From IMG/VR virus record IMGVR_UViG_3300015371_000017, positions 11,101-75,100 of that record: a DNA stretch of 64,000 bases, one strand, 5' to 3'. Below are positions 10,920 through 59,823 of the stretch, in pieces (position 1 is the stretch's first letter; the number at the start of each line of letters is the position of its first letter). A model generated the notes under the pieces. That model was not told the DNA's origin and searched no databases. It worked only from the letters and a program-made list of their open reading frames with translations. A program made the position numbers and the translations under genes. This stretch comes from a virus.

Positions 10920-11255
10920 CTAGGAGCACTCGTTGACGAAAATTTTCCCTTCTATTAAGCACGGATTCGCATCGCCACTCTCAACAACACTTAGCTTATA
11001 AGTTCCGCTTGTCCAAGTAAGTGCCGCGGTATCCGCAGCAGTTAATGCGAGATCGTAAACACCGGGTGATGCGTTTGTGAATTTCCCATTTGCTTGTGTC
11101 CAGCTAAACGCCGCAGCGCCGTTTGGAGTCACGTCAATCTGCGCGCTACTAAGAGTAAGGGGCGCTCCCGCGTCATCGGTAAGAATGAAGGTTTTTTGAA
11201 ACACCCCACCTTTAACGATAACCGCCGTCCAACTGCTGACTTGAGTAGTTGCCAT
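10920..11255 (-). CDS. Fibre adaptor / BppU-N-like small virion protein
   Basis: FILTDDAGAPLTL...GVYDLALTAADTAAL...GTYKL...IEGKIFV pattern. Likely start is ATG 11255. Confidence 0.45.
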   Translation of the reverse strand: MATTQVSSWTAVIVKGGVFQKTFILTDDAGAPLTLSSAQIDVTPNGAAAFSWTQANGKFTNASPGVYDLALTAADTAALTWTSGTYKLSVVESGDANPCLIEGKIFVNECS

Positions 11256-48284: not shown

Positions 48285-48429
48285 TTCTCTTCCTCCTGCT
48301 TTTTTGGTTCAGTATCGAGGGGTTCGATGTAGACGGTTTGATGTAGATCAGTCTCGTCTCTAGTCGAGACTTTATGAGTGCGCCGATTGATCGGAATTAC
48401 GATTGTCTCGTCGTCAGGGTCGATTACTT

Positions 48430-48585
48430 TCACCGCGCCTCCATCTCGGCACAATCCGCGCAAACCCAGCGTGTCCACCTCCGTGAACCTGATTCATTGC
48501 GAAAGCGCATAACTCCGCGCCGATGAAGGCGGAATAAACAGTGAAGCCAGATACCAATCTTATAGCCAATGGGTTGAGTTCGCAC
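48430..48585 (-). CDS. 51-aa Cys/His protein, leaderless first gene of the membrane cluster
   Basis: TAGACA-N18-TACAAT lies 6 nt before GTG 48585. HCLFRLH...CADC. Confidence 0.5.
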   Translation of the reverse strand: MRTQPIGYKIGIWLHCLFRLHRRGVMRFRNESGSRRWTRWVCADCAEMEAR

Positions 48586-48643
48586 GGGCGGATTGTACGC
48601 CGCATTTAGTAGGGATGTCTATGAAATTCAATGAGGTTGCTGG

Positions 48644-48726
48644 AGAAACACGAAACCCGCTAGGTGCTGCTTAGGAACCTAACGGGCCGTGCTGATTGTT
48701 GAGATCAGGTTGAACGAGCTTGCTCA
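48644..48726 (-). ncRNA. Candidate antisense sRNA (locus A)
   Basis: Promoter TTGTAA-N17-TAGGCT, 5' hairpin GAGCAAGCTC, seed TTCAACCTGATCTCAACA, terminator CCCGTTAGG/CCTAGCGGG followed by TTTCGTGTTT. Confidence 0.55.
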
Positions 48727-48785
48727 CTTAGAAGCCTATCAAAAAAAGTGTTGCGTTACAACTTAAATCGGCGTATCTTGGGCAT

Positions 48786-49195
48786 GTTGAGACTAGGTTG
48801 AAAATTGAAGTCCTTCCGATTCCTTTCAACCCGTACTAAATCAACTTTTGTCGGATGCTTTACCTATGACGCTTTTGAGTAATAGCGTAGAACCCTATCG
48901 GTTGGCTGCTTGGCTGATAGGAAAACGTGCCGCAGGGCGCAACGGAAGTTGCGGGGCAGACTGTCTGAAACTTCGGTAATTCCGATCCCTAGTAACGTCC
49001 CCTGACCATAGTAGGGCCGCAAGGATAAGACAAAGCAGCGCGCGAAAACTGAGACACCTCAGCGGGCTCACACCTTAAATCCGACAAGACGCAATCGCGG
49101 TTAAATCTTTGCGCCGTTTAGTAGACGCCGTGAAGTTGGGCAAACCACGTACTTACGTTGCCTAGCGTCTCACACCTAAAAGCGAGAGGATGGTT
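48786..49195 (+). ncRNA. Candidate long structured RNA / leader (locus A)
   Basis: Promoter TTGCGT-N17-TATCTT. No ORF of 60 aa or more. Several hairpins with G-U pairs on this strand and GNRA loops. Confidence 0.5.
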
Positions 49196-49200
49196 GAGTG

Positions 49201-49524: not shown

Positions 49525-49726
49525 CGCCGACTACGGCGACGTATGTAAGAGTTGCTATCGCGGTCTTGAGGCGTTCAAGCGAAACACAAAGTATCTTGGG
49601 CGAGCGATAAGTTATCTGAAAAAGAAAGCGAAGCTGATAACGAAACACGACCGCCGCGCGAGGCGAAAAAGAGCGGTAGAATTACGCAAGTTGATCGCGG
49701 AACAAAAAGCAGACCGTAGATCGTGA
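49499..49726 (+). CDS. Endonuclease-VII-like C-terminal fragment protein
   Basis: CLIC...VCKSCYRGLEAFKRN...LGRAISYL. Confidence 0.4.
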   Translation: MKCLICRNDADYGDVCKSCYRGLEAFKRNTKYLGRAISYLKKKAKLITKHDRRARRKRAVELRKLIAEQKADRRS

Positions 49727-49743
49727 AGTGGCATGACAGATGA

Positions 49744-50196
49744 TCACCCAGAGCTATCGTAAGTGGCTTCAAATCCGCAATCAGGGCACTTTACGTGCTG
49801 GTCGTGCATTCGCGGTGAGTCCCATTTCCAATTTGGATGCTGACAGCCCAAGAGATAGAAATGCACGTCGTAACCATAGCCGTCGCCATCTTTGCTGATC
49901 CACGTTCCAGCCTTTGGCGGATCATCCGATTTCTTCATATAGCGTTCGGCTACCGCGACAGCTTCACGATGAAAAAAGTAGTAATGCCACGAATACCACC
50001 ATTGACGGTCATTAGGATCGGCATCGGGCAGCGGCGCGGAGCCACCGTAGTTCAATCCTTCCAATCCCCAAGGCCCACAATGGAAGTAACGAATAAAATC
50101 ATTCTGAGAGATTTCAGTTAGCGGCGATGCCGCTCGATTCGGGCCGTTCTCCCATTTGATGCCGAAAATATCAGGCTTGCTCCACTGGATTCTCAT
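49744..50196 (-). CDS. Hypothetical protein with C-terminal Zn ribbon
   Basis: GGAGGAG RBS before the ATG, CQH...KCPDCGFEATYDSSG. Confidence 0.55.
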   Translation of the reverse strand: MRIQWSKPDIFGIKWENGPNRAASPLTEISQNDFIRYFHCGPWGLEGLNYGGSAPLPDADPNDRQWWYSWHYYFFHREAVAVAERYMKKSDDPPKAGTWISKDGDGYGYDVHFYLLGCQHPNWKWDSPRMHDQHVKCPDCGFEATYDSSG

Positions 50197-50353
50197 ATTC
50201 TCCTCCACCACCTCAACAACCTGCGCCAAAGAGGAACAGGCGTGTCTTGAAGGGCATAGCTGGCAACCTTCTTCTCGTAATTCAACACGATCTCATTTGG
50301 TATAAGGCGTCCTAGATGTCGCATGGTTACTCCTCTCAGCCTTGAGTATTGAA

Positions 50354-50458
50354 GTTGCGCGACCCGGCTTCGTCATGAAACCAGCCTGAGCGTATCGCCC
50401 TTCCTAGGTGACGACCGCCTAACCCGCTACGGCAAACCGCAGGGACGGAGCCGCGCAA
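50354..50458 (-). ncRNA. Candidate multi-stem ncRNA
   Basis: Closing stem TTGCGCGGCTC/GGGTCGCGCAA encloses three hairpins. Confidence 0.4.
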
Positions 50459-50481
50459 AACTTTTCAAATATCAGGACAGT

Positions 50482-50579
50482 TGCGCAGCGGACAGGACTC
50501 GAACCTGCAATCGAGCACCTCATCGCGTTTAGTGCTCACGGGCATTCCGCGCGTCTGCCATTTCCGCCACTCGCCGCGC
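50482..50579 (-). tRNA. Atypical tRNA-like RNA (Leu-type D arm, no canonical anticodon arm)
   Basis: D arm GGCGGAAATGGCAGACGC, T arm GCAGG-TTCGAGT-CCTGT, acceptor GCGCGGCG/CGCTGCGC, no encoded CCA. Confidence 0.6.
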
Positions 50580-50636
50580 AACATCTGGTAGGCCGAAGCT
50601 GTCCTGTTCGGTAGCGGAAAGCCTCGACCTGAAAGT

Positions 50637-51260
50637 TCAACCTTCGAATTGAAATACTTCCTGACTCATTCGCTTCGCTGCTATCTCGCAATACTTTTCT
50701 GACTTTTCTATGCCGATTGCCGTTCTGCCGAGATCCTTAGCGGCTCGAAGAGTTGTGCCTGAGCCCATGAACGGATCAAGGATCGTTTGCGCTTTCGTTC
50801 TGTTAATAAGCCACTTTGCCCACTGAAGAGGCTTCGGGCAAGGATGACCATTCGGCGGTACTGGTTGAGCATAAAAGTAATCGTGCATCTGAAGCCCCTG
50901 AATCTTTCCGTAAACTAGCAGAGGCTCCCAATCATTGAATCCGATATACGCTGCGTGTCCGGGCGATCCTTTGTACCAACAAATCAACCAATCGGGCGGG
51001 ATTGTTTTATAAATCCACTCGAGCTGATTTATCTGACATGACGGCAAAATGCCCATGTCGGCATTCGCTTTCACCCATCCCACAAGAAGCAGCATCAGAG
51101 TGCGCCAACCTTCCAAGTTGTCATCGTGCGAATCATATTGAAAATCCACGCCATAAGGCGGGTCAGTCAGCACTAAATCAACCTTCGGCAAAGACAGCAG
51201 AATCTCACGACAGTCTCCGTGGTAAATCGTTACTGCTTCGTCTTGGTAATAAGGGGTCAT
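50637..51260 (-). CDS. Orphan DNA N6-adenine/N4-cytosine methyltransferase (beta class)
   Basis: DLVLTDPPY precedes HPCPKP and ILDPFMGSGTT...AIGIE. Confidence 0.9.
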   Translation of the reverse strand: MTPYYQDEAVTIYHGDCREILLSLPKVDLVLTDPPYGVDFQYDSHDDNLEGWRTLMLLLVGWVKANADMGILPSCQINQLEWIYKTIPPDWLICWYKGSPGHAAYIGFNDWEPLLVYGKIQGLQMHDYFYAQPVPPNGHPCPKPLQWAKWLINRTKAQTILDPFMGSGTTLRAAKDLGRTAIGIEKSEKYCEIAAKRMSQEVFQFEG

Positions 51261-51924
51261 TCCCACACGCTTGCGCGTCAGCTTCGACCAGAAGTTTAAT
51301 TCACAATCGTGCGCACTTCTTGAAGTCGCTGATTATAGGCCGTAGCAGCCTGATCGCGGTCAAGATACATTTGAGTCAGCCGTTCGATTGTGTACGGCGT
51401 AAATTCGTCGTCCGGATTTCCTCTGTAGTGAAGAATCCCGTTAATCACTTTTTCTTCGTAGTACATCTGATTCCCCTTTCGCAGCCTGCTCCTTAACGTA
51501 ATCGTCGTAAGCACAATCAGCACACAAAGCAGTCGCTCCTCGGTGGCAATGCGTCAATGCGCAGTCCTTGTCCTCTTCGCAGCGCGGACAATAATGAGAA
51601 TGAAATCCGTTAACCATCTCACCCCTCTCAACTTCGATAAATTCCAAATCGAGTAGCGATGCTCAGGCGTGTCGTCGGCATCGCATCCGGCCTGTCGGAC
51701 ATGTTCCCGTTCAGGCTTCGCATAATGGCCGTTATCCCGAATGCCCTCGTTAAGCATCGCTAGTTGTCACGCCCCAATTCAGCGACTCTAAACCGCCTTA
51801 CTCATTCGGAATGCAGGCGGTCGATTGTCTTGATAGCTGGCTGAAAACGATCCAGCTCAACGGCCTTGGTGAATCTCGATTTCAAAGAACTAGCGCCTCT
51901 CAGCTTCGACCAGAAGTTAAAGAA

Positions 51925-52352: not shown

Positions 52353-52568
52353 CTAACGCTTCTTTTTAGGCCGACTACCGTTTTCGCCATTACCCGACTT
52401 CGCCCGATTGCGTTTTAAGCCAGCAACGGCCTGTGGCGTAAAGAATGCCTGCCGCCCAACGATAATCTCGGCCTCGATGTCGCCCCGTTTGTACATTTTG
52501 ACGAATCCTGGCCGTGTCACGCCGAGTATCGCCGCTGCCTGCTCGGGATTTAGTAAGGTTTTGCTCAC
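52353..52568 (-). CDS. HTH (excisionase/MerR-like) DNA-binding regulator
   Basis: LLNPEQAAAILGVTR...RGDI winged HTH. Confidence 0.75.
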   Translation of the reverse strand: MSKTLLNPEQAAAILGVTRPGFVKMYKRGDIEAEIIVGRQAFFTPQAVAGLKRNRAKSGNGENGSRPKKKR

Positions 52569-52673: not shown

Positions 52674-54350
52674 ATGGCAACTTGCTTCATGCAAACAAAC
52701 CCTTCCGCCGGATTCATTGGCGACCATGCAGCCAAGTGCGCCAACGTAGTCGCGCATCTTGATGGCGAAATAACCGTCAACGGTCACTCAACCCATCACG
52801 TTCAATACGGAATTGCAAAAGAACATCAGAACGGCGCGGGTTGTATGTTGGTGTGCGGGAAGTGTGCTGCGAAATATGAGAAGCGAAATGATTGCGTCAT
52901 AACGGAGGCAAAATGAAAAGTGGTCAGACGTTACATCTTGTGATTGCAATCGATTACGCGGAACGGCTACCGGACCTGAGCGAGTTATTTACCGTCGAAG
53001 GCAAACCGTCAACAGATGCCGAAGTTCGCGCAGAGCTTCAAGAACTAAAGGCCGCTGGCTTTGAGTTCATTCCCGCCTGTGATGATTACGACGAAAAAGG
53101 CAGATGTCGCGGCCATCGATTCGAGGCGAAATTGAAACAACTAGCATGGATTGACGTGAGTTCCTGTGATGAGCGAATGCACCCTGAGACTGTGTGGAGG
53201 CAAAAATGAGAACCCGCAAATTTCATCGGTTTATTTTCGCTGACGAGGCGTTGTTAGCTCGTGCCGCTTTGGAGTTGAAGCACTGGCACATGCCGGATAG
53301 CTCGTGGTGGCTAGGAAGCGAGGATCGTTCGTTAATCACTCGCAGTAGCGATGTGCTTGATGTCATCACGGAAACATTCGGCTTCGCAGACCCAAACACG
53401 CACAGCAATCAAAACTACACTTACGACAGAATCGAGCGCGAAAGCAAAAGCAATGAACAACCTACTGCCTGAAACTGATCTAGTTGCAATCTCAGAACGT
53501 GAAGTAATTGAGGCGGCGCGGATTTGGGTAAAAGAGTGTAATTCGTTTTTCGCAACACATCCTTACTTGACCGTGCTACCTAAACTTGAAAACTTACTTG
53601 CTGCTGTTTCACTGCTTGAATCTCGTGAACAAATACGTAAACAGTTGGAGGCGAAGAATGAAGGTAAATGAAGACAAAAACCCCCTAGCCAGTCTTGAAA
53701 GTTCCCCGCGTCCCGCGCCGGAAAGCAGTCTCATTGCCCGACTGATTTCTGAGCAGTTAACGGGCACAACCGAACATGCCGACGCGGTGGATAAGCTGAT
53801 TCGCGAGAATGGCGATGTAACTTGTATCTATTGCGCAGAACTGACGCTCCACGGGCTGACACTGAACGAACAGGGATTCTGGGAGTCAACCGCAAAGCAG
53901 ATAATGGCCGATCACATGATGGCATGTCCGAAGCGGCCAGAGAAGAAACTACTTGAGAAGATTGAGGAACTTGAAAACCGCGAACACAACGCCCAAGCCA
54001 TCTTAGACGCTATTAGAACCAAACTGAGGGACTGGGCAGGTGACGATAACGCCAATTCTGCTGAGGTACTACTAGTTTCGATTATAAACTTGGCAGCCGG
54101 AAAAGATGAGAACGGAAACGATATTGAGTGATTGGAGGGAACGATGAAATTACCTGTTCGATACGTTCCAAATGAAGATAACTACCTATTGCGGACAGAC
54201 GAGCTAACTGAAGAGGGCGTTGCGGGGTCGATCATTGACGCTGAAGACAATTACATTGCGCGAATCTGGTTTGATTGGGCCGACGACGTAGAAGCCGGAC
54301 ATGAAACGGGGAAACGAATTGCAGCGGCCTTAAACTCAGAGCTGAAATGA
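52674..54350 (+). CDS. Operon of small hypothetical genes
   Basis: Six overlapping ORFs from 52674 to 54350. No recognisable families. Confidence 0.5.
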
Positions 54351-54394
54351 TCGCAGCAACAAATATAGTCAGTCTGCATGTTGCGACACAACGC

Positions 54395-54830
54395 TCCTTT
54401 TCCTGCGGCTCAGGGAGTTGATTTTCAGTAGAGACAAATTCACTTATCCCTCGTGATCCCCTCTTGAGAGTTCTTTGAAACTGTTTTAACGAGAAAGTAA
54501 GATCGCTATTTCAGATCGAAGACCGCTTGCTTAGTATTTGCCCTTCTCCGCGAAGGTCACGTTTGGACACACGCGCTAAGTGCTCGGTCGTTAGCCGAGG
54601 AAACATCAACCAGTTTCAGCGTTGGTGCGATTAGTTTTCGCAATGCAGTCCGTCAGCCCCTTACTGACATTTCCGGTCACTCTCCGTCGCAGATGCGATT
54701 GACTCGATGATTTTGTGTTTCGGTATTCACGAGTCTTGAGAAACCTGAGCCTCGTGGCTCTCTTTCCCGTTGACGGTTTGTGCTATGGGTTTGTGGAATT
54801 AGAAAAGCAAGAATCCCATAAACTACAAGC
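54395..54830 (-). ncRNA. Candidate long structured RNA (locus B)
   Basis: Promoter TTGCAT-N18-CATACT. No ORF of 60 aa or more on either strand. Many stems (TATGGG/CCCATA, GAGCC/GGCTC, GACTCG/CGAGTC, GTCAG/CTGAC, CTCGG/CCGAG, CCTTC/GAAGG). Confidence 0.5.
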
Positions 54831-54889
54831 GAAATGAGTATGCGCCTAAACTAATTGAGAATGCAACAACTTTTTGCTATTGTTCTTTC

Positions 54890-54984
54890 TGCCGCGCCGT
54901 GGTTCACCCAGCCTACTCCGGTAGACTACAAGCAAACGGTGCTAAGAAAGCCGAGGGGCCTGAACCACCCCTCGGTATTTCTTT
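54890..54984 (+). ncRNA. Candidate antisense sRNA (locus B)
   Basis: Promoter TTGAGA-N17-TATTGT with extended TG, seed TAGACTACAAGC, terminator CCGAGGGG/CCCCTCGG followed by TATTTCTTT. Confidence 0.5.
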
Positions 54985-55073
54985 GCGCAGCTACTCCGGC
55001 AACCTCTCAAAATAAATCAAAATTAACTTGACAGATACGTGACCGCTACTGTATTGTGCATTCGTAACCGCTT

Positions 55074-55256
55074 ATGAAAAAGAAACGCAAAGACCCGAAC
55101 GCCGTAGCCCTTGGCAGGAAGGGTGGGCTTAAGGGCGGCCCGGCTAGGGCAAAATCAATGACCGCAAAGGAACGCAGCGATTCGGCGCGAAAGGCAGTAA
55201 ACGCAAGATGGGCGAAGCACAAGGCAAACAGTGGAGCAAGTCGCCACTCGAAATAG
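55074..55256 (+). CDS. Small basic LGRKGG-motif DNA-binding protein
   Basis: KDPNAVALGRKGGLKGGPARAKSMTAKERSDSARKAVNARW. TTGACA...TATTGT promoter. Confidence 0.7.
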   Translation: MKKKRKDPNAVALGRKGGLKGGPARAKSMTAKERSDSARKAVNARWAKHKANSGASRHSK

Positions 55257-55606: not shown

Positions 55607-56944
55607 ATGAGCGAGAAGATACCGAAGAACAGCGAGATTGAAATTCCCGACGATCTTCGCATTGTTCAACTTGAGGGTGAAAACGTTAAGCGTCTTTACG
55701 CGGCGGCAATCTCACCAACCGACGAGCTAACGAAAATCGGCGGCTGGAATGAAAACGGGAAATCGTCGCTGATTGATTGCGTTAGCTATACGCTATGCGG
55801 TGGCCGCGCTCTGCCAGTTGAGCCTCTGCGACGGGGCGCGAAAAAAGGACGTAGTGCCTTAAAGATTGAGAGTCGCGAGTCTGATTTCGGACTGACTGCC
55901 GAGCGTCGCTTCACCAAAAAGGGCGATACACTCGTCATTAAATTTGACGGACAAGACGAGCCAGTTAAATCCCCGCAAGAGTTAGCAAACCGCTTTTACA
56001 ATGCAAGCGCCGCGCAGCCAGACGACTTTCTGCTGAAAGGCAGTAAAGAGCAAGTGGAAATCTTGCGCAAAACGGTCGGCATTGACTTTACCGATCTTGA
56101 CGCTCAAGCCTCTGCTTTGTACGAAGAACGCAAAGGAGTTAACCGCGAAATCAAGCTTCTCGAAGGGCAAGTAGCCGGAGCCGAATACTACGATGACGTT
56201 CAGGCCGTAGATGTCGCAAGCATTCAGCAACAACTAAAAGCGGCGGCGGAGCACAACGAAAGCGTTGAAAGCCACAAGCGCGACAGCGAACGCCGCGCTA
56301 TGCAGATCGATAATCTAACCGAACAAGCAAGCCAATGCGATGCTGAAATCGAATTGCTACGTAAACGAGCCGTTGAGCTAAAGGAAAAGGCAGCAACTCT
56401 ATGGGCGCAAGCCGCTGAACTTGCCAGCGCGGAAATGACCAAAGCCCCCGAGCCGATTGATACATCTGAACTTCTAACTCAACTATCAGAAGCAGAGGAA
56501 ACCAACCGCAAGGTTACCGCCAATGAACGCAAGCGAGAACTTGAAAAAGAACTCAGAGCGAAGAACTCCGAGTCAACAAAACTCACACTTGCCTTAGAGC
56601 GCATTGACGAGACGAAATCTGAGCAACTGGCAAAGGCGAGGTTTCCCGTTCCTGGACTTTCATTCTCGGATGACGGTGTTCTGTTAAATGGGATCCCCTT
56701 TGAACAAGCATCACAAGAACAGCAAGTCATTACGGCGGCGGCGATCGCGCTTGCTCAACAGCCGAAGCTCAAGGCAATTTTAATGCGCCGCGGATCGCTA
56801 TTAGACCCGCAACACCAAGCCGCATTGCGTCAGTGGGCAAAAGATAATAAGTGCCAGGTGTTTTTGGAAGTAGTCGGCAAGGACGCCGATTGTGAATTCA
56901 TTATCGAAAACGGCATGGTAGCCGAGAAGGATGAATGGGAATGA
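55607..56944 (+). CDS. SMC/Rad50-like ABC ATPase
   Basis: ENVKRL, GWNENGKSS Walker A, coiled coil, ASQEQQ signature, GSLLD D-loop. Confidence 0.8.
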   Translation: MSEKIPKNSEIEIPDDLRIVQLEGENVKRLYAAAISPTDELTKIGGWNENGKSSLIDCVSYTLCGGRALPVEPLRRGAKKGRSALKIESRESDFGLTAERRFTKKGDTLVIKFDGQDEPVKSPQELANRFYNASAAQPDDFLLKGSKEQVEILRKTVGIDFTDLDAQASALYEERKGVNREIKLLEGQVAGAEYYDDVQAVDVASIQQQLKAAAEHNESVESHKRDSERRAMQIDNLTEQASQCDAEIELLRKRAVELKEKAATLWAQAAELASAEMTKAPEPIDTSELLTQLSEAEETNRKVTANERKRELEKELRAKNSESTKLTLALERIDETKSEQLAKARFPVPGLSFSDDGVLLNGIPFEQASQEQQVITAAAIALAQQPKLKAILMRRGSLLDPQHQAALRQWAKDNKCQVFLEVVGKDADCEFIIENGMVAEKDEWE

Positions 56945-58481: not shown

Positions 58482-59823
58482 CCCAAAGGGGTGTCGGGAG
58501 TTGGTAAAGCGAAATTAACAACTGAGAACCATCCCTGAACAGGAGGAAGTAGTAATGGCTGAGACGAAATTCACGTTCTTTTGGCTTGATGGTAAGCGCG
58601 AAGTGCTTGAGGGCGCAGATAGCGCAGACGCTCTGAATCGCGCGGGTTACGGCGCGGGTGCAGTGCGAGCGTTGGACTTCTTCGCGCATGGCGATAACGA
58701 CAATTACGTTTGGGACGCGCGCACAGGCGGATGGGAACGAAAGGATCGCGAGGTAAAGCATGGCTGAGACTACTGAAATTGCAGAGGCATTGACGCTCGT
58801 GGAGCAAGTTCGCGCCATGCTGAATCGCGAGGCGTACCACTATTGCGCCGACTGCAAAGGGCATTGCCGGCAAACAATTCTTGCGGTTGAGGCTCTGAAA
58901 GAATTGTTCCTTTTACCCATTTACTCAGCCTCACCTTCTGCCCGAATTGCGGCTGCGCATTCTCCCGCTTCGTATTCTTGTAACGAGAAGTTGGATTTCC
59001 CGCGTATTGAATGAGCCGCCAAAACCTCGCCCCGGTGTCGTTCTTTCCGCTTGTCGCAAATCCCTGCGTCGGCTTCCCGCTGTTGGGAACCTGACGATTG
59101 TGTACGGTTGTCATTGCGCAGATTTAATTCACGAGACGGAATACAAAGCGCGCATGTGTTCTTTGTCCTGTGTGCCGCGAACCACGGCCATCCGAAGAGG
59201 CAGCGTTAAATTGCGCTCGCCATCATACAGAAGGTGAGGCAAATCATGGGTGAGAAACCAGCAACAAAAACTGTTTACGTTCTGAGAGTCAGGCCTGTCG
59301 GCTGGCTACCGCTTGATGCGCTTCCCGATCCGCCTATTCGTAACGAGGTAGAACCATGAGTCTAAGAGAGCAAATTGGCGCCCACAATCATCTCGGCGGA
59401 TTCGACAAAGACTGCGCTGAATGTAACCCCGTCGATTCAGAACGCACAGCCAGTAAGCGCGTCTGCGCGGAGCACTGCGGACACGACCCCGAGTTAACGT
59501 ACAAGGGAATCTGCCGCCATCAAGCAACGATAATGGCTGACATCTGCGGTCATAGGTGCTTCTCTGAGAGCGAGCTACGGCACAACTTCGTGCGCGGTGA
59601 TGGAGGCGGATTGTGCTACTACGAATTGCCTGACACCGATCTCCAAGTCTGTGGACGCCCACGAGACGATGAGTGCCACGTACCGCCAGGCGGGGAATAG
59701 AACGATGCCGATTTGGATAATCATTACTCGCGATTATGAGCCGTGGGCTTACGTCAAGGCCGAATCCCCATGTTGGAAAGGTGAATTGCGGATACCGCTT
59801 CTAGTGTTCACTTTAACGATAGG

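Follow-up and report, generated by a model that had tools for sequence, protein, structure and literature searches.

The 723-bp gap between positions 54351 and 55073 (gap B) is a non-coding control region of a soil phage. On balance, it is probably the control region at the boundary between the early-right operon (52674-54350) and the recombination/replication operon containing an ATPase gene (55074 onward), and it consists of a gene remnant, a spacer, and a boundary cassette. A cassette built to the same order lies in mirror orientation before the lysis/structural operon (locus A), so that the regulatory plan of the phage can be read as a divergent early region bracketed by two motif-sharing terminator-promoter cassettes. 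As this phage is very distant from studied ones, a readable plan helps the annotation of a soil lineage and provides a defined candidate for a small RNA and another for a regulator site. On present evidence, the region does not open a new class of RNA system. Throughout, the window is the entire 64,000-nt stretch that was analyzed, which runs from base 11101 to base 75100 of an IMG/VR virus record (75.1 kb, rated complete by CheckV) originating from rhizosphere or soil. The features discussed below are collected in Table 1.

Table 1. Sequence features of the two loci, in window coordinates.
Feature	Position	Strand	Details
Locus A: mirror cassette	48592-48802	-	before lysis/structural operon
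Locus A: direct repeat	48785-48802 / 48697-48714	-	16/18
Locus A: promoter TTGTAA-17-TGA-TAGGCT	48761-48756 / 48738-48733	-	spacer holds GCAACACTTTTT (48754-48743)
Locus A: terminator with T-run	48686-48656	-	CCCGTTAGGT / ACCTAGCGGG then TTTCGTGTTT; z -2.9
Locus A: 13-mer CTCCAGCAACCTC	48645-48633	-	copy of the gap B 13-mer
Locus A: strong promoter TAGACA-18-TACAAT	48621-48592	-	10/12 matches
Gap B: 24-codon ORF remnant	54347-54421	+	ATGA-coupled to preceding 72-aa gene; stop at 54419
Gap B: weak terminator-like hairpin with T-run	54399-54426	+	after early-right operon; 7 pairs, 3 G-C; tail TTGATTTTCA
Gap B: patch shared with a soil contig	54457-54571	unstranded	~85% identical to low-coverage 151-nt contig, 2019 soil metagenome; indels 1, 1, 1, 4 nt
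Gap B: motif AAACCGTCAACGG	54767-54779	-	further one-mismatch copies 52771-52783 (+) and 53003-53015 (+)
Gap B: left copy of 20-nt direct repeat (16/20)	54814-54833	unstranded	'target' of the original prediction; at chance level
Gap B: proposed leftward promoter TTGCAT-18-CATACT	54837-54866	-	7/12 matches; not called by scan
Gap B: promoter TTGAGA-17-TATTGT, extended -10 TGn	54855-54883	+	-35 54855-54860, -10 54878-54883; called by scan
Gap B: shared motif GCAACAACTTTTT	54863-54875	+	in spacer of the 54855-54883 promoter; counterpart GCAACACTTTTT in locus A spacer
Gap B: candidate short RNA, ~95 nt	54890-54985	+	right repeat copy 54917-54936; ends at intrinsic terminator
Gap B: 13-mer CTCCGGCAACCTC	54994-55006	+	just after terminator; one other exact genome copy, 48633-48645 (-)
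Gap B: tandem A-rich 10-mers (UP-element-like)	55007-55026	+	precede strong promoter
Gap B: strong promoter TTGACA-18-TATTGT	55028-55057	+	10/12 matches; into recombination operon

Genomic context and relatives

The divergent early region has a small HTH gene on the minus strand (52353-52568) in its midst. To its right, beyond gap B, an SbcC-like AAA_23 ATPase (55607-56944) is encoded among the plus-strand genes that start at 55074. To its left, gap A (48285-49197) separates the lysis/structural operon from two small plus-strand genes that encode proteins of 108 and 77 aa. The minus-strand gene block at 3-48300 contains a 2017-aa ORF as well as very hydrophobic small ORFs adjoining locus A, and we read it as the structural and lysis genes; the three large ORFs of this block that were tested gave 0 family matches in Pfam, and most proteins of the phage have no family match.

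Relatives were sought in several collections. Identity between the ATPase and proteins of GenBank phages never exceeded 33%, blastn and tblastn against GenBank phages returned nothing close, and ATPase homologues at 49-79% identity exist in Logan contigs of up to 65 kb. Searching IMG/VR with the ATPase, an ATPase alignment, and the 181-aa and 108-aa proteins identified only one relative (L002, 32%), which has no gap comparable to gap B, and an IMG/VR search with the DNA pattern of the two motifs described below gave 0 matches. The genome collection that was searched gave no relative; in the metagenome collection, the ATPase retrieved none and the 108-aa protein retrieved one contig (L012). Near-identical DNA is present in rhizosphere metagenomes from 2012 and a relative in a soil metagenome from 2019, and the metagenome DNA contigs that matched are either identical to the window or from an L012-type relative.

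Gap B as non-coding DNA

The original prediction had described gap B as lacking ORFs of at least 60 aa, and indeed none is found in it. The period-3 signal is low, and a search of 1.84 billion representative proteins gave no family for the longest ORF (58 aa), its only matches being two spurious ones to repeat proteins. None of the small ORFs checked in the gap is hydrophobic or preceded by a Shine-Dalgarno sequence, and none is a credible gene. Other candidates were dropped as well: recoded stop codons, because each of the three is frequent in every one of the six frames; a MITE or repeat element, because the genome holds no second copy; and a tRNA or tmRNA, because none was called in the gap. 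The Rfam 15 covariance models gave no match at the gathering score in the 64-kb window, and with E-values up to 10 allowed they gave only noise in gap B (E >= 0.86) and nothing in gap A.

About 450 nt (54422-54854), running from the gene remnant to the cassette, have no demonstrable product. Within this stretch, the patch at 54457-54571 is ~85% identical in another soil phage, represented by a 151-nt contig that diverges after the patch, so the patch is shared and behaves as non-coding there too; it holds a promoter-like site on the plus strand (TTGAAA-17-TAAGAT, 54475-54503). Given this conservation, the stretch may have a function that was missed. The motif AAACCGTCAACGG is found at three sites with at most one mismatch, compared to an estimated 0.09 or so by chance. 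Its two near-copies are inside genes and in different reading frames, and it is not found in L012; it is possibly bound by a protein in connection with the early region.

Two mirror cassettes at the operon boundaries

The right end of gap B carries a promoter, a hairpin followed by a U-tract, and a second, stronger promoter, all on the plus strand. Scored against the sigma-70 consensus, which is assumed to apply in the host, the first promoter (54855-54883) has 9 of 12 matches, and sites with at least 10 of 12 number five in the 75.1-kb genome (150 kb with both strands counted). Two of these five best promoters lie 19-44 nt past the terminators of loci A and B, each pointing into a large operon. 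The terminator in gap B has a stem formed by 54950-54958 and 54968-54976 (GCCGAGGGG / CCCCTCGGT) followed by the U-tract (ATTTCTTTG), as expected of an intrinsic terminator for the promoter on that strand. It is one of few compact G+C-rich hairpins with a U-tract in the genome, and the 103-nt stretch that contains the hairpin (54950-54976) folds with a z-score of -3.7. At locus A, a hairpin and then a U-tract are likewise found on the strand of the upstream promoter. The chances that a discrete RNA of ~95 nt is made from the promoter at 54855-54883 are, in our estimation, about even.

The start codon of the first ORF of the recombination operon (60 aa, basic, phrog_2384) is the ATG at 55074, and the -10 box of the strong promoter at 55028-55057 ends 16 nt before it. 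Because no Shine-Dalgarno sequence was seen on reading the letters ahead of this ORF, the mRNA from the strong promoter is predicted to be nearly leaderless.

Aligning loci A and B in the same transcriptional sense gave a common order: a TGn promoter with GCAACA(N)CTTTTT in its 17-nt spacer, a variable body of ~60 nt, the terminator, the 13-mer CTCCRGCAACCTC, an A/T-rich stretch, and the strong promoter. The cassette measures ~200 nt, and the short RNA would be roughly 85-95 nt in both loci. The likeness between the spacers of the two small-RNA promoters, which had been claimed before, was confirmed, in that GCAACA(N0-1)CTTTTT (motif 1) occurs only at 54863-54875 and 48743-48754 in the 75.1-kb genome. 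The 13-mer (motif 2) also has only two sites in the genome, one in each locus. As a colinear pair, the two motifs have a p-value of 0.006-0.011 against random segment pairs; taken alone, motif 2, the better of them, is matched in about 6% of such pairs, and motif 1 coincides in part with features common to promoters, as a T-tract precedes the TGn of its extended -10. An A/T-rich stretch of 11 nt in locus A and 21 nt in locus B separates motif 2 from the -35 box. This 10-nt difference corresponds to the tandem 10-mer that is duplicated in B, so the helical phase is kept. The mirror-image architecture originally proposed for the two loci thus holds within the ~200-nt cassette, where the two motifs are colinear, but not for the long-RNA part.

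A model for the cassettes and its relation to known systems

From these signals and their mirror arrangement, both of which are directly observed, we infer the transcripts, a regulator, and the timing. The first part of gap B would be a truncated remnant of a displaced gene that marks a module-exchange junction, and the second would be spacer DNA. In the third part, a sigma-70-type extended -10 promoter would give rise to the ~95-nt RNA, which would stop at the strong intrinsic terminator; the conserved 13-mer, the A-rich tract, and the strong promoter presumed to serve the next operon would follow. The cassettes at A and B, in mirror orientation, would bracket an early region of 6.3 kb, and their terminators would stop transcription coming from the early region and from the small upstream promoters, thereby insulating the strong promoters. 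Both shared motifs contain GCAAC, motif 1 in the spacer of the small promoter and motif 2 some 50-60 bp upstream of the predicted start of the strong promoter, with its A and B copies one helical turn apart. The GCAAC motifs are putative sites for one regulator that would time both operons together, and the short terminated RNA might in addition work as a small RNA. Candidates for such a regulator are the HTH protein encoded at 52353-52568 and the zinc-ribbon proteins of the early operons.

In phage lambda, the Q protein binds between the -35 and -10 boxes, and the early terminators tL1 and tR1, together with nutL and nutR, flank the immunity region. The layout found here resembles the latter arrangement in that two mirrored, motif-sharing sites bracket a divergent early region with an HTH gene and have the recombination/replication and late genes beyond them. 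Unlike the lambda nut sites, no boxA/boxB-like pair was recognized and no N-like factor was found, and one shared motif lies downstream of the terminator. Lambda PR'-6S RNA-tR' and its counterpart in Stx phage likewise have a promoter, then a short RNA, and then a strong intrinsic terminator directly ahead of a major operon; in Stx phage, the RNA that starts at PR' and ends at the terminator, StxS, has a small-RNA function (PMC7547250). An antitermination-controlled leader of the PR'-6S-tR' or N/nut type, in which the small promoter would be the regulated entry, the ~95-nt RNA a by-product, and a phage factor at the spacer motif the means of read-through, would agree with the presence of this order before both large operons, with the StxS precedent, and with the position of the shared motif between -35 and -10, as for Q binding. 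The segment 54892-54906 can moreover pair with the 3' arm of the terminator (12/15), which would form an antiterminator. We nevertheless regard such a leader as unlikely, because the strong promoters (10/12) between each terminator and its operon make read-through unnecessary, and the operon without a promoter of its own after the terminator, as in Q-type systems, is found at neither locus. Also, in a phage most of whose proteins match no family, none of about 30 ORFs near the loci matched an antiterminator family in Pfam or PHROGs, no Q-like gene was found among them, and reading alone detected no obvious -10-like pause element in the first 25 nt. A further difference from PR'-6S-tR' is that the unit occurs twice, mirrored, before the recombination operon and before the late genes.

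The proposed long RNAs and seed pairing

The model of boundary cassettes differs from the original prediction, in which a rightward small RNA in gap B faces a divergent leftward long RNA of ~430 nt and pairs with it through a seed of 12-20 nt, locus A being an orthogonal copy and the RNAs possibly serving as replication primers. We judge that earlier model to be improbable, although the mirror cassette on which it drew is real. The -35 boxes that it described as abutting and divergent do abut, with TTGAGA (54855-54860) adjacent to ATGCAA (54861-54866), which is TTGCAT on the minus strand, but the leftward promoter has just 7 of 12 consensus matches and was not called. With no minus-strand terminator seen for the leftward RNA in B and a z-score of only -1.3 for its fold, a long RNA in this direction was not borne out. 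For whole regions, the z-scores are -1.3 (B minus), -0.3 (B plus), and -1.6 (A plus). In sliding windows, values of -3.3 and -3.1 were reached once each, one per locus, among about 80 windows and are strand-specific, but these windows with z < -3 weaken when shifted and were not reproduced. The AT skew of 54400-54850 is slightly negative, as expected of a region whose sense strand is the minus strand.

Nor was a single family of two long RNAs borne out. BLASTN of one gap against the other found no shared sequence (best E 1.4), and RNAalifold found no shared fold, with 33 consensus pairs at -16 kcal/mol compared to about -125 kcal/mol for each sequence alone. The three short words said to be common to the long regions are present, but the shared 8- and 9-mers are equalled or exceeded in 18-23% of random segment pairs and are not colinear, with two of the three words in swapped order between A and B. 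The GGCG at the end of both long-RNA spacers is a mere 4-mer and not above chance. In addition, where long RNA A would lie, the relative L012 has a gene for a putative HNH endonuclease, and gap B is missing from it, as described below.

The predicted seed pairing was found as letters: TAGACTACAAGC (54922-54933) is complementary to TAAACTACAAGC (54819-54830) with one G-U pair on the proposed strands. In a region-level test, it is at chance. When single random 41-nt windows are used as the reference, RNAduplex places the pairing of the short RNA with the proposed 5' end in the top 1.8% for B (a 13-bp helix with 2 G-U pairs) and in the top 1.2% for A (17 of 18 positions paired), cross pairs between A and B are weaker, and both transitions within the 13-bp core of duplex B read as G-U pairs when the proposed strands are taken, all of which would suit the earlier model. 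When any site in the 300 nt of the divergent neighbor is admitted, pairing as good as this is reached by 28% (B) and 5% (A) of random regions, and the pairing is therefore not evidence at locus B. In line with this, ACTACAAGC occurs twice or more in 7 of 100 shuffles, and the B direct repeat scores below a threshold that is reached 66 times among close direct repeats genome-wide. With the collagen-like genes set aside, the A repeat (16/18) belongs to the few best close repeats genome-wide. An ungapped genome-wide scan for complementarity ranked the B target about ninth and the A target tied first. With the B pairing at chance and the A pairing borderline, orthogonal seeds do not stand out as a designed feature. 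In a further reading, the two mirror cassettes would be a new phage timing device, in which each short RNA would pair through its own seed with the 5' end of the divergent RNA, a 410-nt leader of two small genes in A and an antisense RNA to the end of the early-right operon in B, and so couple early shut-off to the firing of the recombination and late operons; we consider this quite improbable as well.

A similar layout is that of zorO-orzO (PMC3919570, PMC5397157), in which a divergent small RNA has 16-21 nt of complementarity to the 5' part of an RNA with a long leader and duplicated sibling copies can occur; tisB-istR-1 likewise places a small RNA divergent from a long-leader RNA, as in the proposed layout. 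The ORFs of the B leftward region and of the A leader, checked as type I toxins, are hydrophilic or neutral, and none has a Shine-Dalgarno sequence. Thus, unlike in zorO-orzO, there is no small hydrophobic ORF, the complementarity in B is at chance, and the A leader precedes ordinary genes of 108 and 77 aa.

Replication primers and origin

The primer RNA II and antisense RNA I of ColE1 overlap and are fully complementary. The original prediction appears to be modeled on this system, with a structured long RNA opposed by a short one close to replication functions, but the RNAs proposed here are non-overlapping divergent units and lack both origin features and, for the long RNA, support. A role as replication primers finds no backing in gap B, which has no skew inflection, iterons, or AT-rich block. 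The minimum of the cumulative GC skew is found at about 52.6 kb, together with the switch in gene orientation, rather than at A or B. DnaA boxes and iterons had been entertained for gap B and were dropped after reading and a repeat search. It is very unlikely that gap B is an origin of replication next to the replication/recombination genes. Its place directly upstream of the recombination module, the patch at 54457-54520, which reads as the most AT-rich part of the gap, and the AAACCGTCAACGG site with its two near-copies upstream would suit an origin; the gap as a whole nevertheless has 47% GC compared to about 50% around it, tandem iterons are absent, the skew does not change at the gap, and the AAACCGTCAACGG copies are 0.2-1.8 kb apart and inside genes.

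A module-exchange junction and other differences from relative L012

L012 is a 5.6-kb soil contig whose 108-aa and 77-aa genes are 95-97% identical to those of the window phage at the amino acid level. It is colinear with the window as far as 53982, beyond which come 2.8 kb of other genes; the match to the window resumes at 58482. From their sequences, we read these other genes as including RecT-like and YqaJ-like proteins, which replace gap B and the AAA_23 ATPase module; at this place, L012 lacks gap B, the ATPase module, and any sizeable non-coding stretch. By blastn, L012 3713-3759 matches 54346-54386 with 79% identity (E 1e-5), and by tblastn MIAATKANIVSPHVA aligns to MIAAT--NIVSLHVA. The first 15 codons of the remnant in gap B match the start of a 129-aa ORF of L012, which in the window phage meets a stop after 24 codons. 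As homology to the start of the L012 ORF extends over the first 40 nt of gap B, the gap begins at a module-exchange junction. A pseudogene extending past the first 15 codons was considered and dropped, because tblastn found no further remnant of the displaced 129-aa gene in gap B.

The gene remnant at the left edge and the absence of the region from L012 are also what would be expected if gap B were decayed or leftover DNA from the exchange, with the strong promoter alone functional and all signals upstream of 55007 fortuitous, and the counts of promoter- and terminator-like sites in the area do equal those in shuffles. This explanation seems rather unlikely to us, since compact G+C-rich hairpins with a U-tract, such as this terminator, are few in the genome, the terminator has a mirror twin at the same position relative to a strong promoter, the two colinear motifs have a p-value of about 0.01, and the displaced gene left no further trace by tblastn.

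At the other end of the early region, L012 and the window diverge at 49146. There, where the window phage has the proposed long RNA A, L012 encodes on its plus strand (3-248) the C-terminal part of what we read, from the motif DHIVPL...N...H, as a putative HNH endonuclease, ending 31 nt upstream of the 108-aa gene. Within the plus-strand 77-aa gene, the minus strand has terminator-like hairpins (49645-49666) that may end the early-left operon where it is convergent with the pair of 108-aa and 77-aa genes.

Further differences from L012 were observed within the early region. The 1.17 kb at 50088-51260, which holds a 95-nt ARAGORN 'tRNA-Gly' call and an N6/N4 DNA methylase gene, are missing from L012, which has 20 other letters instead. 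A 22-nt direct repeat (21/22) at 51278-51299 and 51900-51921 flanks a 622-nt segment with two small minus-strand ORFs; L012 contains this repeat only once, without the 622-nt segment, an arrangement that suggests insertion or recombination at a boundary sequence. Outside the window (window position -9871), the perfect 19-nt direct repeat CAAGTGCCAATATGGAACT lies at 1230-1248 and 1311-1329 of the genome with a spacing of 81 nt; if the collagen-like genes are set aside, no close repeat in the genome is stronger.
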